From Armatimonadota bacterium (lineage in GTDB: Bacteria > Armatimonadota > Fimbriimonadia > Fimbriimonadales > GBS-DC): 64,000 nucleotides of DNA. Shown one piece after another: positions 10,863-20,640 of the stretch. Position 1 is the stretch's first letter. Each line of letters starts with the position of its first letter. The translations under genes and the position numbers were made by a program. The notes beneath the pieces are model-generated. The model did not search any database, was not told where the DNA came from, and saw only the letters and a program-made list of their open reading frames with translations. Where the stretch lies: assembly GCA_037445735.1 (NCBI GenBank), contig JBBIJY010000015.1, positions 1 through 64,000 on the forward strand, given 5' to 3'.

Positions 10863-13460
10863 TTAAAGAGCTGCTCGTTCCGCCGCAAAGAGGGGCAGCG
10901 ATGGGGCAGGCGCGCGCAGGCGATAGATCACAAAGGGTGCCGTCATGCCCTTGAGCTGCACCGTTTCGGGCGGCAGGTCGGGCACAACGCCCGCTTCACG
11001 CGCGGCGCGATAGACCACCTCGCTCATCACGATTTCGCCCGCTGCCGCCAGCGCCTGCAATCGTGCCGCAATCACCACCGTGCCGCCCACCGCTGTGTAG
11101 TTGAACTGGTGCGGGCTGCCCAGCAGACCCAGCACCGCCTCACCAAAATGCAGTCCGATGCCGATGCCCAGCGGCGCGCCCGCCGACGAATCGACAGCGA
11201 CCTGCTGGAGCGCGTGCTGCATCGCTATCGCGGCGCGAACCGAGCGGCAGATCAGCTCGGTGTCCGACTCCGGCTCCGGCAGCAGGTGCGCTGCGAACAG
11301 CGCCATCAGCCCATCGCCCGTGTACTTGTCCAGAATGCCCTGATGGGCGTGGAGCGCGTCCGTGAGCGCGCTCAGATAGCGATTGAGCCGCTCAATCACC
11401 TGTTCCGACGTGTGCGTCTCCGCGAAGCGGGTGAAGTTGCGGATGTCGGCGAACAGCACCCCCACCCGACAGCGCTGACCGCCCGGGCTGAGCCGTTCCG
11501 CGATGTCCTCCAGCAGTTGCTCCGCCACTTCGGGCGCGACCAGCCGCTGCAGCAGCGCACGGTGGCGGGCACGCTCCGCGCTCTCGCTCACAAACGCCAT
11601 CTGCGAGACCAGTAACACGGTCAACGCCACGCTCAATACGGGCAGCAGCGGGTCCAGCCAGATTCGCTCCACCAGAAAGAGCGCCAGGCTGAACAGCCAG
11701 ACAACCAGCGCAATCAGAAGCGCGATCCACCACGCTTCGAGGGGCGTGCGGCGCAGGCACAGCGAGCCGCTGATCAGCCCCAGCGCGAGCAACACCAGCC
11801 CCACCCAGCCCGCTGACAGCCCGCGACCCGTGTGCCCGTCGAGCAATGAGGCGAGCTGATGCGCCATCAGCTGCTGCGCGTCCATGCGCCCTATCGGGGT
11901 CTGATACAGCTCCGGCAGCGGATACGGCAACAGCACGATGCGGTTCTCGAACAGCTGGTGCGTTGGCATCGCCTGCACATCGAAGGTGCGCTCCGTCAAC
12001 AACCCGTCGCGCTCGGTGCGCCGCTGAACCAGCCAGTAGAGCGGCGGTCGGGTCAGCACGCAGGCAAGCGGCACCTGCAGAAACACCTCGCCGGGCTGGT
12101 CGCCATAGAACTCGGTCGGCACGAACCGCACCTGCAGCCGCTCATACGCACGGCGGTCGATGAGCTGAAGCGCGGCGAGCGGCGGTGCTTCGAAGCGGCG
12201 ACTGCGCTCCAGCACGGGCAGTGCAGGCGCGAGGTAGCGCACGCGCTCAAGGCTGCCGACAGCTTTGCCCGTTCGGATCAGCGACCGGGCTTCGGGCGGC
12301 AGCCGCTGGGCACTCGGCACCACCCAGACCACATTGCCCGCCTCACGCGCCGCCGCCATTAACAGGTTCAAATCGCGCCGATTGCGCTGTGCCACGCGCC
12401 GTGCAGGCTCCGAATCAGCGCCGCCAGCGGCGAGCAACGGGATCGGCACCAGCAGCAGCCGCGCCCGCCACACACGCAACTGCCGAATCGCCTGCGCCAG
12501 CACCGCGCACTCCGAACGCTTCTCGATCGCCGCATAGCTCTGCTGGTCATGCTGGAGCAGCACGATACGGCTTGACGCCTGCGTTTGCCCCAGCGCCAGG
12601 CTCATGCCCCTGCGTTCCTGCACCCATGGCTCGTTGCGGAATCGGATGAGCCAGATGAGGCTGTTCGCCTGCAGGGGCATCAGCACGCCCGACTGCCACA
12701 CCAGCCATGTCAGCAGCCCGATAGTGACGCCAATCGCCGCGCCACGCAAATCGAGCGTCCGTCGGCGTGCGCCGGCACCCCGCTGGATGACCAGCAGGCG
12801 TCGGAGCCACTGGCGCGCCCACTGCCAGCTGCTATGCAGCCACCTGCCATGAACCAGCTGGCGCACGGTCAGCACGGTGAGGAGCGGCACGCCCAGCCAC
12901 ACCGTCAGCACCAGCATCGCGGGCACGCCCAGCAGCGCCAGCAACAGCCCCACTGCCTGCCAGCCCCAGCATGCCATCAGTCCCCAGCGCGCCGCTGCAT
13001 GCTCCGCCTCCGCCGCTGCCGCCAGCCCCAGCCCCGCCCCGAACAGACTGACGAAAAAGCCGCAAATCAGCGATAGCCCGAAGCTGATACCCGCCATCAA
13101 CAGCAGGAACGCGCCGCCAAAAGCGACCGACTCCGCCCGCGAAGCCGCATTCGCCATCCAAACAGGCATCAGGATCGCGCTCAAAAACGCGCCGATGAAT
13201 GACCAGCCGAAGGCGATCGAGGCGATGGACGCCCACAGGCGCGGGCGCGTCAGGCTGACCGCCACCGCCTTCAGCCCCATCAGCGCGTTCGCCAGCACCC
13301 AGAAGGCAAACAGCGTCCAGGTAGCAGGAATCAGCCCGCCAGTTAGCCCGGCAATCAGCGCGCTGACCAGCGCCAGCAGGGTCAGCCCACGCCCGAAACA
13401 GCCCAGCGACTCCCACACGCCCAGCAGCCACCGCCCAACCACACGCCCGGCAGAATCCAT
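10863..13460 (-). CDS. Membrane adenylate/guanylate cyclase with CHASE2-like sensor
   Basis: Class III cyclase motifs VLFADIRNFT, LDKYTGDGLMALF, GIGLHFG, YTAVGGTVVIAARL; CHASE2-like region plus 3 TM; about 6 extra N-terminal TM helices. Confidence 0.85.
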   Translation of the reverse strand: MDSAGRVVGRWLLGVWESLGCFGRGLTLLALVSALIAGLTGGLIPATWTLFAFWVLANALMGLKAVAVSLTRPRLWASIASIAFGWSFIGAFLSAILMPVWMANAASRAESVAFGGAFLLLMAGISFGLSLICGFFVSLFGAGLGLAAAAEAEHAAARWGLMACWGWQAVGLLLALLGVPAMLVLTVWLGVPLLTVLTVRQLVHGRWLHSSWQWARQWLRRLLVIQRGAGARRRTLDLRGAAIGVTIGLLTWLVWQSGVLMPLQANSLIWLIRFRNEPWVQERRGMSLALGQTQASSRIVLLQHDQQSYAAIEKRSECAVLAQAIRQLRVWRARLLLVPIPLLAAGGADSEPARRVAQRNRRDLNLLMAAAREAGNVVWVVPSAQRLPPEARSLIRTGKAVGSLERVRYLAPALPVLERSRRFEAPPLAALQLIDRRAYERLQVRFVPTEFYGDQPGEVFLQVPLACVLTRPPLYWLVQRRTERDGLLTERTFDVQAMPTHQLFENRIVLLPYPLPELYQTPIGRMDAQQLMAHQLASLLDGHTGRGLSAGWVGLVLLALGLISGSLCLRRTPLEAWWIALLIALVVWLFSLALFLVERIWLDPLLPVLSVALTVLLVSQMAFVSESAERARHRALLQRLVAPEVAEQLLEDIAERLSPGGQRCRVGVLFADIRNFTRFAETHTSEQVIERLNRYLSALTDALHAHQGILDKYTGDGLMALFAAHLLPEPESDTELICRSVRAAIAMQHALQQVAVDSSAGAPLGIGIGLHFGEAVLGLLGSPHQFNYTAVGGTVVIAARLQALAAAGEIVMSEVVYRAAREAGVVPDLPPETVQLKGMTAPFVIYRLRAPAPSLPLFAAERAAL

Positions 13461-13485: not shown

Positions 13486-13818
13486 TTAAAGAGCCGCTTC
13501 ACCGCGCTCTTCGGTGCGGATACGGATGGCATCTTCATACGGCAGCACGAAAATCTTGCCGTCGTCGGGCTGACCCGTGCGCGCATGGCGCAGAATGGTC
13601 TCAATCACGGGTTCGACCATTTCATCGGGCACGACCATCTCCAGGCGCAGGCGCACGGGCAGCCGAATCAGCACCTCGTCGCCGAAGGGGCTTTCGGGCG
13701 GGGAGCTGCCACAGCCGCGCACCTCGCTGACCGTCAGTCCCGTGATGCCCAGCTCACTGAGGGCGGTTTTGACCTCCTCCAGCTTGTGCGGGCGCAGAAT
13801 GCAGTCCACCTTTTTCAT
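13486..13818 (-). CDS. PII-family signal transduction protein with non-canonical T-loop
   Basis: MKKVDCILRPHKLEEVK, GITGLTVSEVRG, TGQPDDGKIFV, IRIRTEERGEAAL; no RQKG or Tyr51. Confidence 0.93.
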   Translation of the reverse strand: MKKVDCILRPHKLEEVKTALSELGITGLTVSEVRGCGSSPPESPFGDEVLIRLPVRLRLEMVVPDEMVEPVIETILRHARTGQPDDGKIFVLPYEDAIRIRTEERGEAAL

Positions 13819-15394
13819 GGCGCACGATCACCGTCGGATAAGCCAGCTCTGCGCGGGTATCGGGGTAGTCCAGCACCGCGTGCAGCCCGCGGCTCTCATG
13901 TCGGCGCAGGGCACATTCGGTGATTAACCACGCGCAGGTGGCGATATTGCGCGTCTCGCTGGCGGGAACTGTGGGTGTCTGGCGACGGAACGCCTGCTCG
14001 ATGCGGCGCATGATGGTTTCAAGTTCGGCGCGCGCCTCCTGCAGTCGCGCCACCGAGCGCACAATGCCCACCTTCGACTGCATCAGCTGGCGAACGCGCA
14101 GGCGCGTGTCGTTCCAGTCAAGCGGGGTCGCCAGATCGGTTTCATCAGGTGCCTGAGCGGGGTCGGACAGGGTGGCTGGTGCGGGGTGGGGGCTGGGGGG
14201 CGGCTCGTCCAGGCGCGTTATGGCGTGCCGGGCTGCTCGCTCGGCGAACACCAGCGCCTCCAGCAGCGAGTTGCTTGCCAGCCGATTCGCGCCATGCACC
14301 CCTGTGCAGGCGACCTCGCCACAGGCATAGAGCCGCCGCACCGTCGTGCGACCCCATAAATCCGTCCACACGCCGCCACACACATAGTGCGCCGCTGGCA
14401 CCACGGGGATCGGCTCGCGCGTGATGTCGATGCCAGCCTGCAGGCACCGCTGATAGATGGTGGGGAACCGCTGACGGATGAAATCGGCGTCGAGATGGGT
14501 GATGTCCAGATAGACGAACGGGTCGCCCGTCTTTTTCAGCTCGGCGTCGATGGCGCGGGCGACAATATCGCGTGGGGCTAACTCGGCGCGGGGGTCATAA
14601 TCGGGCATGAATCGGTAGCCGTCGCGCCGCTTGAGGATACCGCCCTCGCCCCGCACCGCCTCCGAAATCAGGAACGCCTGCGCCTCCGGCTCAGGCACAT
14701 AGAGCGTGGTGGGATGGAACTGGATGAACTCCATATTGGCGATGGCGGCGCCCGCGCGCCAGCCCATCGCGATGCCGTCGCCAGTGGCAATCGCGGGGTT
14801 GCTCGTGTGCAGATAGACCGTCCCGCAGCCGCCCGTCGCCAGCAGCACCGCTTTCGCCCGAATCTCAAACAGATCGCCAGTCAGGGTATCCAGCACCTGC
14901 ACCCCGACGCAGGCGTCGCCTTCGATGATCAAATCCAGCACGAAATAATGCTCCAGCAGGGTGACGGAGGGCAGGGGTCGCACGGCACGCAGCAGTGTGC
15001 GCTCGATCTCGGCGCCGGTGTGGTCGGCGGCATGCACGATTCGGTTGCGCGAGTGTCCGCCTTCGCGTCCCAGCGCGAGCGTGCCGTCCGGATTGGTATC
15101 GAACTCTGCGCCCAGCTCGATGAGCCACTGTACCATGCGGGGGGCGTTGCGGGTCAGCACCTCCACCGCTTCCGGGTCGCACAGTCCCGCACCCGCCGCG
15201 AGGGTGTCCTGCATGTGCAGTTCCCACGAGTCGTCGGCGCCGAGCGCGGCGGCGATACCGCCCTGTGCATAGTTGGTGTTCGATTCGGAGCGCTGTTTTT
15301 TGGTGATGATAGCGACGGAGCCGCCTGGGGCGACATTCAGGGCGAAGGTCAGTCCTGCGATGCCGCTGCCCAGCACGAGGTAGTCGTACTCCAT
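13754..15394 (-). CDS. nadB: L-aspartate oxidase
   Basis: LGSGIAGL, SNTNYAQGGIA, REGGHS, EFIQFHPT, ELAPRDIVAR, AAHY, GVHGANRLASNSLLE. Confidence 0.96.
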   Translation of the reverse strand: MEYDYLVLGSGIAGLTFALNVAPGGSVAIITKKQRSESNTNYAQGGIAAALGADDSWELHMQDTLAAGAGLCDPEAVEVLTRNAPRMVQWLIELGAEFDTNPDGTLALGREGGHSRNRIVHAADHTGAEIERTLLRAVRPLPSVTLLEHYFVLDLIIEGDACVGVQVLDTLTGDLFEIRAKAVLLATGGCGTVYLHTSNPAIATGDGIAMGWRAGAAIANMEFIQFHPTTLYVPEPEAQAFLISEAVRGEGGILKRRDGYRFMPDYDPRAELAPRDIVARAIDAELKKTGDPFVYLDITHLDADFIRQRFPTIYQRCLQAGIDITREPIPVVPAAHYVCGGVWTDLWGRTTVRRLYACGEVACTGVHGANRLASNSLLEALVFAERAARHAITRLDEPPPSPHPAPATLSDPAQAPDETDLATPLDWNDTRLRVRQLMQSKVGIVRSVARLQEARAELETIMRRIEQAFRRQTPTVPASETRNIATCAWLITECALRRHESRGLHAVLDYPDTRAELAYPTVIVRHEKGGLHSAPAQAGGGQNRPQ

Positions 15395-15405
15395 GCTCTG
15401 GCTCC

Positions 15406-16152
15406 CTACGGGCGTGCGCTCGCCCGTTTACGGGCGGTGCGCGTGCGCCTGCCGTTTGCTGCCCGCTGATTACTCACGCGCCCGTCAGCCAGCGCGTGTT
15501 CGGTGTCCCGTTCCCACGGGGACGGTTCCTGCGCCAGATGGTACGACAGCACTGCCAGCTCCTGCAGGAACGAGACATTGCGCACATGCACATGGGGCGG
15601 TACTTTGAGGCTGGTGGGCGCGAAGTTCAAAATCGCGCGGATGCCTGCCTCCACCAGCTGGTCGGCGACCTCCTGCGCTGCGCTGGCGGGCACAGCGATA
15701 ATCGCGATCTGCGCCCCTATCTGCGCGTTCACCTCTTTGAGTCGGGCGATGTCCTCAATGATCAGCTCGCCGAACGGTCGTCCAATCTTGACGAAGTTGT
15801 TATCGAACACGGCGGCGATACGGAATCGGTGGGCGCGGAAGTTGGGGTAGCCGACCAGCGCCGCGCCCAGATTGCCCGCGCCCACCAGCAGCATCGGTTG
15901 CTCCCGATCCAGGCGCAGGATGCGCTCGATGCACTCAATGAGTTGCTGCGTGGAATAGCCGACGCCGGGCTTACCGAACTCGCCGAAGTAGGAGAGGTCT
16001 TTGCGGAACTGGGCGGCGCTGATACCGCAGAGGCGCTCGATGTCGCGTGACGAAAGCGTTTCCAGCCCCGCCTCGCGCGCATCGAGCAGCACTCGCAGGT
16101 AGGTGGCGAGTCGTTCCAGCGTCGGTATTGGCACGCGCGTCTCGGTCATCAT
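15406..16152 (-). CDS. rex: Redox-sensing transcriptional repressor Rex
   Basis: PTLERLATYLRVL, SS..I, QFRKDLSYFGEFGKPGVGY, VGAGNLG, GIRAILNFAP. Confidence 0.96.
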   Translation of the reverse strand: MMTETRVPIPTLERLATYLRVLLDAREAGLETLSSRDIERLCGISAAQFRKDLSYFGEFGKPGVGYSTQQLIECIERILRLDREQPMLLVGAGNLGAALVGYPNFRAHRFRIAAVFDNNFVKIGRPFGELIIEDIARLKEVNAQIGAQIAIIAVPASAAQEVADQLVEAGIRAILNFAPTSLKVPPHVHVRNVSFLQELAVLSYHLAQEPSPWERDTEHALADGRVSNQRAANGRRTRTARKRASARP

Positions 16153-16154
16153 CG

Positions 16155-17498
16155 CTACTGGATTTCACCGATTTCGGCGAGCGCTTCTTCGAGTTCCAGC
16201 CCTTTGCTGCGGCGCAGGTCTTCGATGCGTTCCCCGATCTGGCGCAGTTTGCGCATGGCACGCAGTTCGAGCTGGCGCACGCGCTCGCGCGTGATGCCCA
16301 GCGCGGCGCCGACCTCTTCGAGCGTGCGCTGATGCCCGTCGTCCAGCCCGAAGCGCAGGCGCACCACCTCGCGCTCCTTCGGCTGCAGCTTCTGCAGGAT
16401 CATTTCGATCTGCTCGCGCAGGATGAGCCGTTCCAGCGCGTCGGCGGGCGTGGGTATATCCTGCGATGGGATGAACTCGCCGAGCGTGGCGTTCTCCCGC
16501 TCGCCGACGGGGCTTTCGATGGAGATTGGCTCAATCGACGCGCGCCGCATCTCGCGCACGCGCTCGGGCGTGATGTGCCGCTTCACTTTGGGCATGTGGC
16601 GCCGTATCTCCTCTTCGGTCGGCATGCGCCCCAGCATCTGCAGCAGCTCCTGCGCCGCCCGCTCACGCGCAATCTCTTCGGCAATCTCCTCGTCGGTCGG
16701 CTCCCGCTGCAGAATCTGTTGCAGTCGCTGCTCCGTCTTGATGACGCGGTTGATCAGCTCCGCCACATAGACGGGGATTCGGATGGTGCGCCCGTGATTG
16801 ATGATGGCGCGGGCAATCGCGCGGCGAATCCACCAGGTGGCGTAGGTGCTGAAGCGGAAGCCGCGGCTCGGATCGAACTTCTCGACGGCGCGAATCAAGC
16901 CCAGATTACCCTCCTGAATCAGGTCCGCAATCGACACCCCCCGTGCGCCATATCGCTTGGCGACGCTGACCACCAGCCGCAGGTTGGACTCGATGAGCTT
17001 GCGTTTGGCTTCGTCCGCCTCTTCCATGCGGAAGGCGAGTTCATAGGGTGGCAGCCCCGCTGCCTGCGCCCACTCCTCCTCACTGATCTGGTCGGGTGAA
17101 ACTTTGCGCTTTTCAGCGAGTTCGCGTCGGATGCGCAGCAGCCGCTCACCCTCCTGCACCTGCTGGGCGTAATGAATCTCCTCCTCCGGGGTCAGCAGCT
17201 GCGAGCGGCGGCTCTGCAGCATCCAGAGCTCCACATCGACGCTATCGTCCTCATGCGGGGTCTCCTCGTCCACGCCACCCCAGAAATCGGGTTCCTCGTC
17301 CAGCTCTTCGTCGACTTCGATGCCAGCCAGCCCGATGGAGGTCAGCTCCTCATCAATCGGCTCGACCTCCTCCAGGCTCAGGCTCTCATCTTCCAGCTCG
17401 AGCGGGTCGGGATAGGGCATGTCGTGCCCTGTCCGCCCCGCGCGAACAACCGCCTGCGATTCTACGAGCATTTCAGTTTCCTCATCCAAGATCGGCAA
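16155..17498 (-). CDS. RpoD/SigA-like sigma-70 factor, probably non-primary (group 2-like)
   Basis: SNLRLVVSVAK, DLIQEGNLGLIRAVEKFD, FSTYATWWIR, RTLEEVG..TRERVRQLE; TTG start after AGGAGGTG; degenerate region 1.2. Confidence 0.92.
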   Translation of the reverse strand: MPILDEETEMLVESQAVVRAGRTGHDMPYPDPLELEDESLSLEEVEPIDEELTSIGLAGIEVDEELDEEPDFWGGVDEETPHEDDSVDVELWMLQSRRSQLLTPEEEIHYAQQVQEGERLLRIRRELAEKRKVSPDQISEEEWAQAAGLPPYELAFRMEEADEAKRKLIESNLRLVVSVAKRYGARGVSIADLIQEGNLGLIRAVEKFDPSRGFRFSTYATWWIRRAIARAIINHGRTIRIPVYVAELINRVIKTEQRLQQILQREPTDEEIAEEIARERAAQELLQMLGRMPTEEEIRRHMPKVKRHITPERVREMRRASIEPISIESPVGERENATLGEFIPSQDIPTPADALERLILREQIEMILQKLQPKEREVVRLRFGLDDGHQRTLEEVGAALGITRERVRQLELRAMRKLRQIGERIEDLRRSKGLELEEALAEIGEIQ

Positions 17499-17529
17499 TT
17501 GACATCACCTCCTGACCCGCGGCACCACT

Positions 17530-17547
17530 TTGTGAACGATTTCACAA
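17530..17547. promoter_or_regulatory. Rex operator (ROP)
   Basis: Perfect TTGTGAA-cgat-TTCACAA, 31 nt upstream of the sigma start of the rex-containing operon. Confidence 0.93.
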
Positions 17548-17895
17548 GCGATGCCGTGCCTGTCCGTCGCCTGCGTCCCAATTAAGACGCTCCTTCGATA
17601 GATACGGCACGCGCTGGCAGCAAGTTCCTGCCGTCGCCCTATCTATTATAACACAGTTCGACGCGGATGGGTTCACCGCCGTGCCGTTAAAATTTTCACG
17701 AACAGCACGCCTGTTCCTGCCGTTTATAACATACGACGCTCCCTGCAAGAATCCTGCTTTTTCCTCTGCGCTAGCGAAAGAGCTTGCATAAGCAATGATG
17801 CCTCTTGTAATGGGGGTATGGTCAAGGGATTAGTATGTAACGAGTCCGCAACGATATAGGTTCATGGATGGGATATGCTTTACTTGAGGTGGTAA

Positions 17896-20610: not shown

Positions 20611-20640
20611 TTGACACGGCTGTCCGGGATGGAGTATAAT
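20611..20640 (+). promoter_or_regulatory. sigma70 promoter of the Fur/PerR-ATPase operon
   Basis: TTGACA-18 nt-TATAAT. Confidence 0.9.

Follow-up and report, generated by a model that had tools for sequence, protein, structure and literature searches.

Can a redox sensor set the supply of a sigma factor, and what kind of sigma factor would that be? The question is raised by the first 64,000 nucleotides (forward strand; hereafter the window) of contig JBBIJY010000015.1 from an Armatimonadota bacterium of the order Fimbriimonadales (assembly GCA_037445735.1), in which a Rex operator lies ahead of a four-gene cluster, sigma–rex–nadB–PII, led by the gene of an RpoD-like sigma factor to which we give the working name SigX. 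The genome of the window is 2.78 Mb in size and is called G000 here; G handles for genomes and the codes f1–f5 for families are working labels. The G000 family was compared with its sister family f5 (15 genomes) and with the families f2, f3 and f4 of the order. We lean towards a reading in which SigX would have taken over most of the housekeeping work from a decaying RpoD, while Rex, through the operator in the leader of the cluster, would throttle its synthesis.

The operator, TTGTGAACGATTTCACAA (17530–17547, no strand given), showed no mismatch to the Rex consensus TTGTGAA-N4-TTCACAA and was the sole perfect match in the window. It is located in the 5' leader of sigX (16155–17498, minus strand, TTG start), 31 nt from the start codon, as the sequence-only reading had reported. 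At three mismatches or fewer the window held five Rex-type matches against 0.82 expected, a count reached by none of 100 shuffles; the whole G000 genome held two perfect sites and 12 at up to two mismatches. A box with at most two mismatches was observed 44–59 nt before the sigX start in 23 of the 25 G000-family genomes, with its arms conserved and its centre variable, which bears out the operator conservation that had been proposed as a check. The genome also encodes an intact Rex from a single-copy gene (15406–16152, minus strand) that passes several NCBIfam cut-offs. Its winged helix and NAD(H) fold, including the recognition helix (RKDLS) and the GxGxxG NAD(H) loop, are intact; the C-terminal tail is not conserved.

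The same motif was found ahead of respiratory genes. In G000, boxes precede heme o synthase (ctaB) with cox subunit III and SCO, nuoG, the atp operon (atpB), and a multiheme-cytochrome/molybdopterin-FeS operon that we label alternative-complex-III-like (our own label; its matches are below cut-off). The set agrees with the Rex regulon demonstrated in Streptomyces avermitilis (PMC5355995). This list holds matches to the consensus only, and weak sites may be missed. The box of the last operon, on contig C11, is also leader-located (L443:278–295; G000:C11:71777), and a weaker one lies just before the −35 element of that operon. In f5, where rex is not linked to sigX, the box was present before sigX in six of the seven genomes with a recognisable RpoD (one of them, G101, unpublished). 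The operator thus tracks the sigma gene even where rex is elsewhere, and this suggests that the connection is older than the operon. The predicted operator on this conserved sigma-led operon very probably marks a real Rex-to-sigma link.

Two promoter-like elements were placed upstream of the operator by comparison of the family leaders, on which both calls rest; a generic promoter scan gave no sigma-70 site in the region. P1 is a predicted sigma-70-type promoter with the extended −10 element TGTG-T-TATAAT (17645–17655, minus strand; TGnTATAAT in 20 of the 25 family loci), whose −35 is degenerate in G000; TTGACA at 17 bp is present in most other genera. P2, GGAACT-N16-CGTATC (17601–17628, minus strand), resembles promoters of the extracytoplasmic function (ECF) type, and the form G[GA]AAC-N16-18-CGTA was found at −117 to −136 in all 25 family loci. 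Genome-wide, the ECF-like motif was not enriched and showed no clear spacer peak. The operator would lie at about +91 to +108 from the predicted P1 start and at about +47 to +65 from the predicted P2 start, with the Shine–Dalgarno sequence AGGAGGTGA (17505–17513, minus strand) between it and the sigX start. As the box is downstream of two conserved promoter-like elements, Rex would be expected to act as a roadblock, as described for the apparently essential wblE of Streptomyces avermitilis, in whose leader Rex binds at +108 to +135 (PMC5355995).

Some further features of these leaders were observed. A weak, unverified Rex-like site with four mismatches (17686–17701, minus strand) lies upstream of P1, and three same-genus relatives have similar sequence there. 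An 11-nt direct repeat at 17624–17634 and 17713–17723 contains GCAGGAA, which recurs in family leaders, often ahead of a second GGG-Y-TATAAT. In the f5 sigX leaders (L200, L202, L204, L096) the box is just downstream of CGTCT and just upstream of TTGACA-17-TAnnnT, and in G103 and G104 GAACTT is found 16 bp upstream of CGTCT; the f5 box thus sits between an ECF-type and a sigma-70-type promoter-like element.

Which sigma factor would Rex be controlling? G000 has three RpoD-like proteins. SigX (447 aa) carries the Pfam regions 1.2, 2, 3 and 4. An RpoD ortholog with region 1.1 is encoded directly after dnaG (L223:1787–2890, or G000:C2:111283–112389; no strand given) and is 44% identical to the canonical RpoDs of the phylum. 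The third sigma-70 paralog (L227:945–1847, or G000:C25:15444–16349; no strand given) is found throughout the order; its region 4.2 is damaged, and His-Trp stands in place of the W-dyad in eight of eight copies examined. The W-dyad is universal in housekeeping sigmas (PMC4593229). SigX has no region 1.1, passes no RpoD model (301 bits against the TIGR02393 cut-off of 354), falls outside the RpoD clade and is not linked to dnaG, which adjoins the C2 sigma; with regions 1.2–4 alone it has the make-up of a group 2 sigma. It also keeps the W-dyad, E458 and the canonical recognition residues of region 4.2, that is, the −35 recognition helix, as a group 1 sigma does, with the equivalents of Q437R, T440A and H455Y as changes. 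In a quick tree, from which four rows were left out (the fragment G037b, G041, G069 and G089), the 43 SigX rows formed a single, short-branched clade with an SH-aLRT (approximate likelihood-ratio test) support of 100, and the dnaG-linked copies had long branches.

The two sigma factors differ strongly in constraint. Over 223 aligned columns, SigX was 80.3% identical within the order against 49.8% for RpoD, and higher in 276 of 276 pairs (24 genomes); in six outgroup genomes the values were 80.2% and 83.0%, and SigX was higher in just 4 of 15 pairs. SigX coexists with a canonical RpoD in other Armatimonadota classes, and its orthologs were beside other sigmas in 11 of the 18 outgroup second-sigma loci read. 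Together these point to SigX as an old paralog under steady constraint and to a collapse of constraint on RpoD. Within the G000 family, the median ratio of nonsynonymous to synonymous substitution (dN/dS) was 0.065 for SigX and 0.204 for RpoD, with SigX lower in all 101 pairs kept after 35 of 136 were dropped for saturation. In 122 of 136 pairs the rate of change was higher for RpoD than for NadB, and the synonymous divergence of SigX was below that of NadB in 135 of 136. No sigma exceeded the RpoD cut-off in any of 41 relatives; among genomes from other orders, 36 of 56 had one above it. The G000 RpoD carries the equivalents of Q437H, T440G and E458K, and it has lost the lysine of the VEKF/VDKF motif, which is gone from 17 of 17 family copies. 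None of the genomes examined in the order lacked SigX. Being far better conserved than an RpoD that some relatives have deleted, SigX is probably the main or co-main housekeeping sigma of G000, to judge from these comparisons. As side observations, the families f8, f13 and f20 in the phylum sample also had no sigma over the RpoD cut-off, and in genus g12 (L089–L092; G031, G034) sigX is duplicated, both copies have diverged, and the dnaG-linked copy is 36% identical to canonical RpoD.

The deletion of RpoD was observed in 5 of the 15 f5 genomes (G028, G036, G097, G098 and G099), which are 97–99% complete and belong to four genera. In these five, dnaG is followed by an unrelated gene in mid-contig. 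The sigma profile matched at none of their dnaG loci and at 10 of the 11 others, the single miss being a contig end, and no region 1.1 was matched in any of the five genomes. Each has two strong RpoD-like matches, SigX and the third paralog, and four to six region-3 matches in total. Since no RpoD was found in them and the third paralog has no W-dyad, SigX would, by elimination, in all likelihood be the primary sigma there. On the dnaG tree the loss needs two to three changes.

Housekeeping promoters are consistent with such a handover. In G000 they take the form TTGACA-N18-TATAAT, the −10 being preceded by GG (54 at a spacer of 18 bp and 10 at 17 bp; for example, window positions 20611 and 59697). 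The 18-bp spacer outnumbered the 17-bp spacer in 25 of 25 G000-family genomes and in none of four f2/f4 genomes, whose RpoD is the least changed. The fraction with GG before the −10 was 0.47, compared to a median of 0.15 in 36 canonical-RpoD genomes. Among tRNA leaders, GGTAnnnT was found in 24 of 43 in G000, and in 14 of 30 and 16 of 29 in two RpoD-less genomes; a control genome with canonical RpoD had it in 6 of 30. Positions −12 to −14 are read or flanked by Q437, T440 and H455 (PMC2613000; the position of H455 differs in PMC4593229), and at the corresponding residues SigX departs from RpoD. All this fits SigX reading the GG-TATAAT-type housekeeping promoters, short of proof. A relaxed −12 base, as would be predicted from Q437R, was not supported: T was at −12 in 51 of 62 G000 promoters of spacer 18, and CAnAAT in tRNA leaders (3 of 30, 0 of 29 and 1 of 43) also spoke against it.

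Several observations weigh against a handover in G000 itself. Its RpoD is intact, with region 1.1 and the W-dyad both retained, and shows a dN/dS of 0.14–0.17 against same-genus relatives, so it is functional, and a takeover there is a matter of inference; none of the seven G000-family genomes whose dnaG region was read has deleted RpoD. Conservation alone does not prove a primary role, as SigX is equally conserved where RpoD is canonical, and 20 of the 56 outgroup genomes likewise fall below the RpoD cut-off. Outgroups, too, have GG ahead of the −10 (at a median fraction of 0.15 and reaching 0.29), and the tRNA promoter control is a single genome. The RpoD-less genomes are known as assemblies, in which a relocated and very divergent rpoD copy is possible, and one origin of the loss was not rejected (approximately unbiased test, AU, p 0.245). 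As to the box, it is absent in two of the 25 G000-family genomes (G014 and G004), in all four f2/f4 genomes with rex, and in all five RpoD-less f5 genomes, though these keep rex; before sigX it was also not seen in six f3 genomes, in which the rex query used gave no match, or in the two g12 genomes read. The association of box and RpoD loss in f5 is suggestive only; it rests on one independent pair on well-supported branches and is not phylogenetically significant. It can be read in two ways. A paralog gated by Rex and capable of replacing RpoD would agree with it, but the box is missing from just those genomes in which SigX must be primary, so that box-bearing copies of sigX, as in G000, could still be secondary.

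These points feed the alternative that survives best, namely that RpoD is still primary in the G000 family and SigX is a Rex- and ECF-induced group 2 sigma for low oxygen or stress, primary only where rpoD is deleted. It accounts for region 1.1 being absent from SigX and present in the dnaG-linked copy, for the purifying selection on RpoD, for the ECF-like promoter before every family sigX and for the f5 box being in six of seven genomes that keep RpoD and in none of five that lost it. A distinct specificity is suggested by the altered SigX residues at positions Q437, T440 and H455, and the family-specific 18-bp spacer (25 of 25) could have co-evolved with the changed RpoD. It sits badly, however, with an RpoD that evolves faster than a metabolic enzyme such as NadB, that has lost the VEKF/VDKF lysine throughout the family and carries Q437H in G000, and that was deleted in four genera of the sister family; the GG-TAnnnT form of the housekeeping promoter is, moreover, common to G000 and the RpoD-less genomes. 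We therefore regard this alternative as possible but rather unlikely. The 'dedicated alternative sigma' of the sequence-only reading is doubtful in the same way. A group-2-like origin speaks for it; against it, every other RpoD-like sigma of the order is less conserved than SigX, and 5 of 15 f5 genomes have deleted RpoD.

The handover that we favour could have proceeded as follows. SigX would be an old group-2-type paralog that, in other Armatimonadota classes, accompanies a canonical RpoD; in this order RpoD would have lost constraint and sometimes been deleted, with SigX taking over. sigX would be transcribed from the sigma-70-type promoter for basal supply and from the ECF-type promoter for a stress boost, and Rex bound downstream of both would be a partial roadblock rather than an off switch. 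A rise in NADH/NAD+ would release Rex and increase SigX synthesis. In the G000 family the older rex–nadB unit and the atypical PII gene would have moved behind sigX and become dependent on read-through, which would close a negative loop and bring de novo NAD synthesis under that signal too. The wider proposal, in which the whole order moved housekeeping to a former group 2 sigma as RpoD decayed or was deleted, with promoters shifting along (to GG-TATAAT and, in the G000 family, an 18-bp spacer), and in which NADH/NAD+ sets global transcription capacity via Rex in the G000 family, we consider evenly balanced.

How far do the genes behind sigX belong to the switch? nadB, for L-aspartate oxidase, is at 13754–15394 (minus strand; TIGR00551 602.8 bits against a cut-off of 452.75), and the PII gene is at 13486–13818 (minus strand; it passes Pfam and not NCBIfam cut-offs). 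The four genes and their spacing, a 2-nt gap between sigX and rex, an 11-nt gap between rex and nadB and a 65-nt nadB/PII overlap, were as described earlier. The proposed check on gene order was also borne out: sigma–rex–nadB was adjacent in 24 of 24 family relatives, followed by PII on the same strand in 22 (inverted in G004; the contig ends in G021). The 2-nt gap and the 65-nt overlap are not family traits, as sigma and rex lie about 50–70 nt apart in most relatives, and nadB and PII do not overlap in genus g3. A GC-rich inverted repeat without a T-run lies between sigma and rex in most relatives (L032–L047, L060–L064) and is deleted in G000 and G002; it may bias the mRNA towards sigma over rex–nadB–PII. 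nadB was matched in two pieces in G019 (L064), and the sigma gene of G015 (L035) spans an assembly gap. A longer conserved operon with a downstream cyclase was rejected, as the cyclase is there in 1 of 24 relatives; in the window, 10863–13460 encodes a membrane protein of 865 aa that has an adenylate/guanylate cyclase domain; its gene follows PII by 25 nt, a position shared with G002 only.

Autoregulation of rex through the sigX leader is plausible, since no GG-TAnnnT-type promoter was seen in the 150 nt before rex at any of the 25 family loci; most f2 and f5 rex genes have such an element directly upstream. Outside the G000 family, rex and nadB were adjacent in 9 of 10 rex-bearing genomes (in one the contig ends), with no sigma gene or box nearby. 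rex–nadB thus appears to be the older unit and its place behind sigma to be family-specific. Of the switch first proposed, the autoregulated part is therefore plausible; joint induction of the sigma factor and NAD supply would be a family-specific rearrangement, as rex–nadB elsewhere has its own promoter-like element and no box. A second alternative goes further and holds that the box controls only sigX, with rex, nadB and PII as passengers of the rearrangement, weakly or separately expressed, and no autoregulatory or NAD module. The box-free rex–nadB pairs of other families, the GC-rich hairpin in most family members, and nadA and nadE lying elsewhere in the genome without a listed box would agree with it. 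The invariant order in 24 of 24 relatives, the missing GG-TAnnnT element before the family rex genes, present before most of those in f2 and f5, and the tight spacing in G000 make it improbable.

The last gene of the cluster had been proposed as a PII relay onto NadE, and this part was not supported. The protein has the PII fold, with RGCG replacing RGFG/RGYG, a variable acidic and proline-containing T-loop and DDGK as its B-loop. Canonical PII proteins use the T-loop residues Q39, Y51 and K58 for 2-oxoglutarate sensing and modification. Equivalents of all three were absent in the 14 of 14 operon copies aligned and present in a canonical PII encoded on contig C4. In G028 and G040, PIIs that resemble it are encoded away from nadB. 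The G000 genome has nadA and nadE at other loci; NadE, on contig C13, is a 301-aa synthetase-only enzyme with no glutaminase domain, so the PII–NadE(Gln) arrangement, in which a glutamine-dependent NadE is often clustered with PII, was not found here. With such a NadE on another contig and the three T-loop residues missing, a nitrogen-to-NAD relay of this kind is highly unlikely. Most likely, the operon PII is an adenine-nucleotide sensor uncoupled from nitrogen signalling.

Could the palindrome serve something other than Rex? It contains the TGTGA-N6-TCACA core of CRP sites, and it lies at the apex of a possible leader RNA hairpin (17517–17557, minus strand; z −3.1) just 5' of the ribosome-binding site. 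That the palindrome is mainly such a hairpin apex, in control of mRNA stability or translation, or a CRP-type site, with little effect of Rex, is very improbable. In favour of it, the flanks vary and yet form better pairings than shuffled ones do in 22 of 23 family loci, G-U pairing is compatible with 11 of 15 core deviations, and in both G000 and G002 the gene after PII is that of an adenylate cyclase. Against it, none of the seven core pairs showed a compensatory change, the basal stem is out of register, the same motif precedes respiratory operons without hairpin-type flanks, the cyclase is behind PII in just 1 of 24 relatives, no CRP-family regulator was found in box-bearing G000 (no full-length CRP helix-turn-helix; best match partial and MarR-like) or G040 (none), and the box before sigX is missing from all six f3 genomes, where rex was not found. 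Hairpins persist at the same place in both family genomes without the box. The f3 genomes G030 and G033 have four and nine near-matches to the operator pattern, though rex was not found; G033 has CRP-type regulators, and the f3 near-matches may be CRP sites.

The usual view is that RpoD is essential and conserved universally and that group 2 sigmas are dispensable. The order provides a natural series in grades, with RpoD near-canonical, degenerate or deleted and the paralog constant, which makes the replacement of a primary sigma, and the promoter changes following it, testable; cultured Fimbriimonadia exist, and essentiality and chromatin immunoprecipitation (ChIP) tests are thus feasible. 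Calling the dnaG-linked copy the primary sigma may be a wrong annotation in this order. With a Rex operator on a sigma gene, the reach of Rex would go beyond metabolic genes and take in the transcription machinery. The literature searched, which left subscription papers mostly outside, contained no Rex-controlled sigma gene, in agreement with the earlier remark that no characterised cascade of this kind was known to its author (a sigma or nadB target may figure in regulon compilations), and no case in which a group 2 paralog replaces RpoD. For a cultured member of the Fimbriimonadia three rpoD genes are given without comment (PMC4072686), and the accessible part of PMC8716302 makes no mention of the phylum. 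The parts are of known kinds; the Rex-sigma wiring and the sigma handover are apparently new.

Among known systems, the group 2 sigmas, defined as non-essential (RpoS, cyanobacterial SigB–E and Streptomyces HrdA/C/D; PMC4598750), resemble SigX in being close to group 1 without region 1.1, and SigX shares with them its stress-type inputs and its place beside canonical RpoD in other classes. Unlike them, SigX stands alone as a sigma with the W-dyad among those examined in the five RpoD-less genomes. With group 1 RpoD/SigA it shares the W-dyad, E458 and region 4.2, and it is under the strongest constraint among the sigmas of the order; it differs from them in the missing region 1.1, the locus away from dnaG, the score below TIGR02393, the separate clade and the three substitutions at the Q437, T440 and H455 equivalents. 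The PII–NadE(Gln) module (PMC7196632) is similar in having a PII gene adjoining an NAD synthesis gene. Here, however, the neighbour is nadB and not nadE, NadE has no glutaminase domain, and PII has no canonical effector residues; PII control has been shown for dimeric glutamine-dependent NadE and only suggested for other types. NAD synthesis genes are a described class of Rex regulon member (PMC6391272), whereas in the G000 family control would come by read-through from a sigma leader, in one family only, and rex–nadB elsewhere in the order has no box. There is also a likeness to the Streptomyces Rex regulon (PMC5355995), with the same operator consensus, atp, nuo and terminal-oxidase targets, rex within a Rex-boxed operon and, at wblE, a leader-located operator on a regulator gene. 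In the Streptomyces rex–hemA operon the partners are hem genes; here the first gene encodes a sigma factor, and the partners of rex are nadB and PII.

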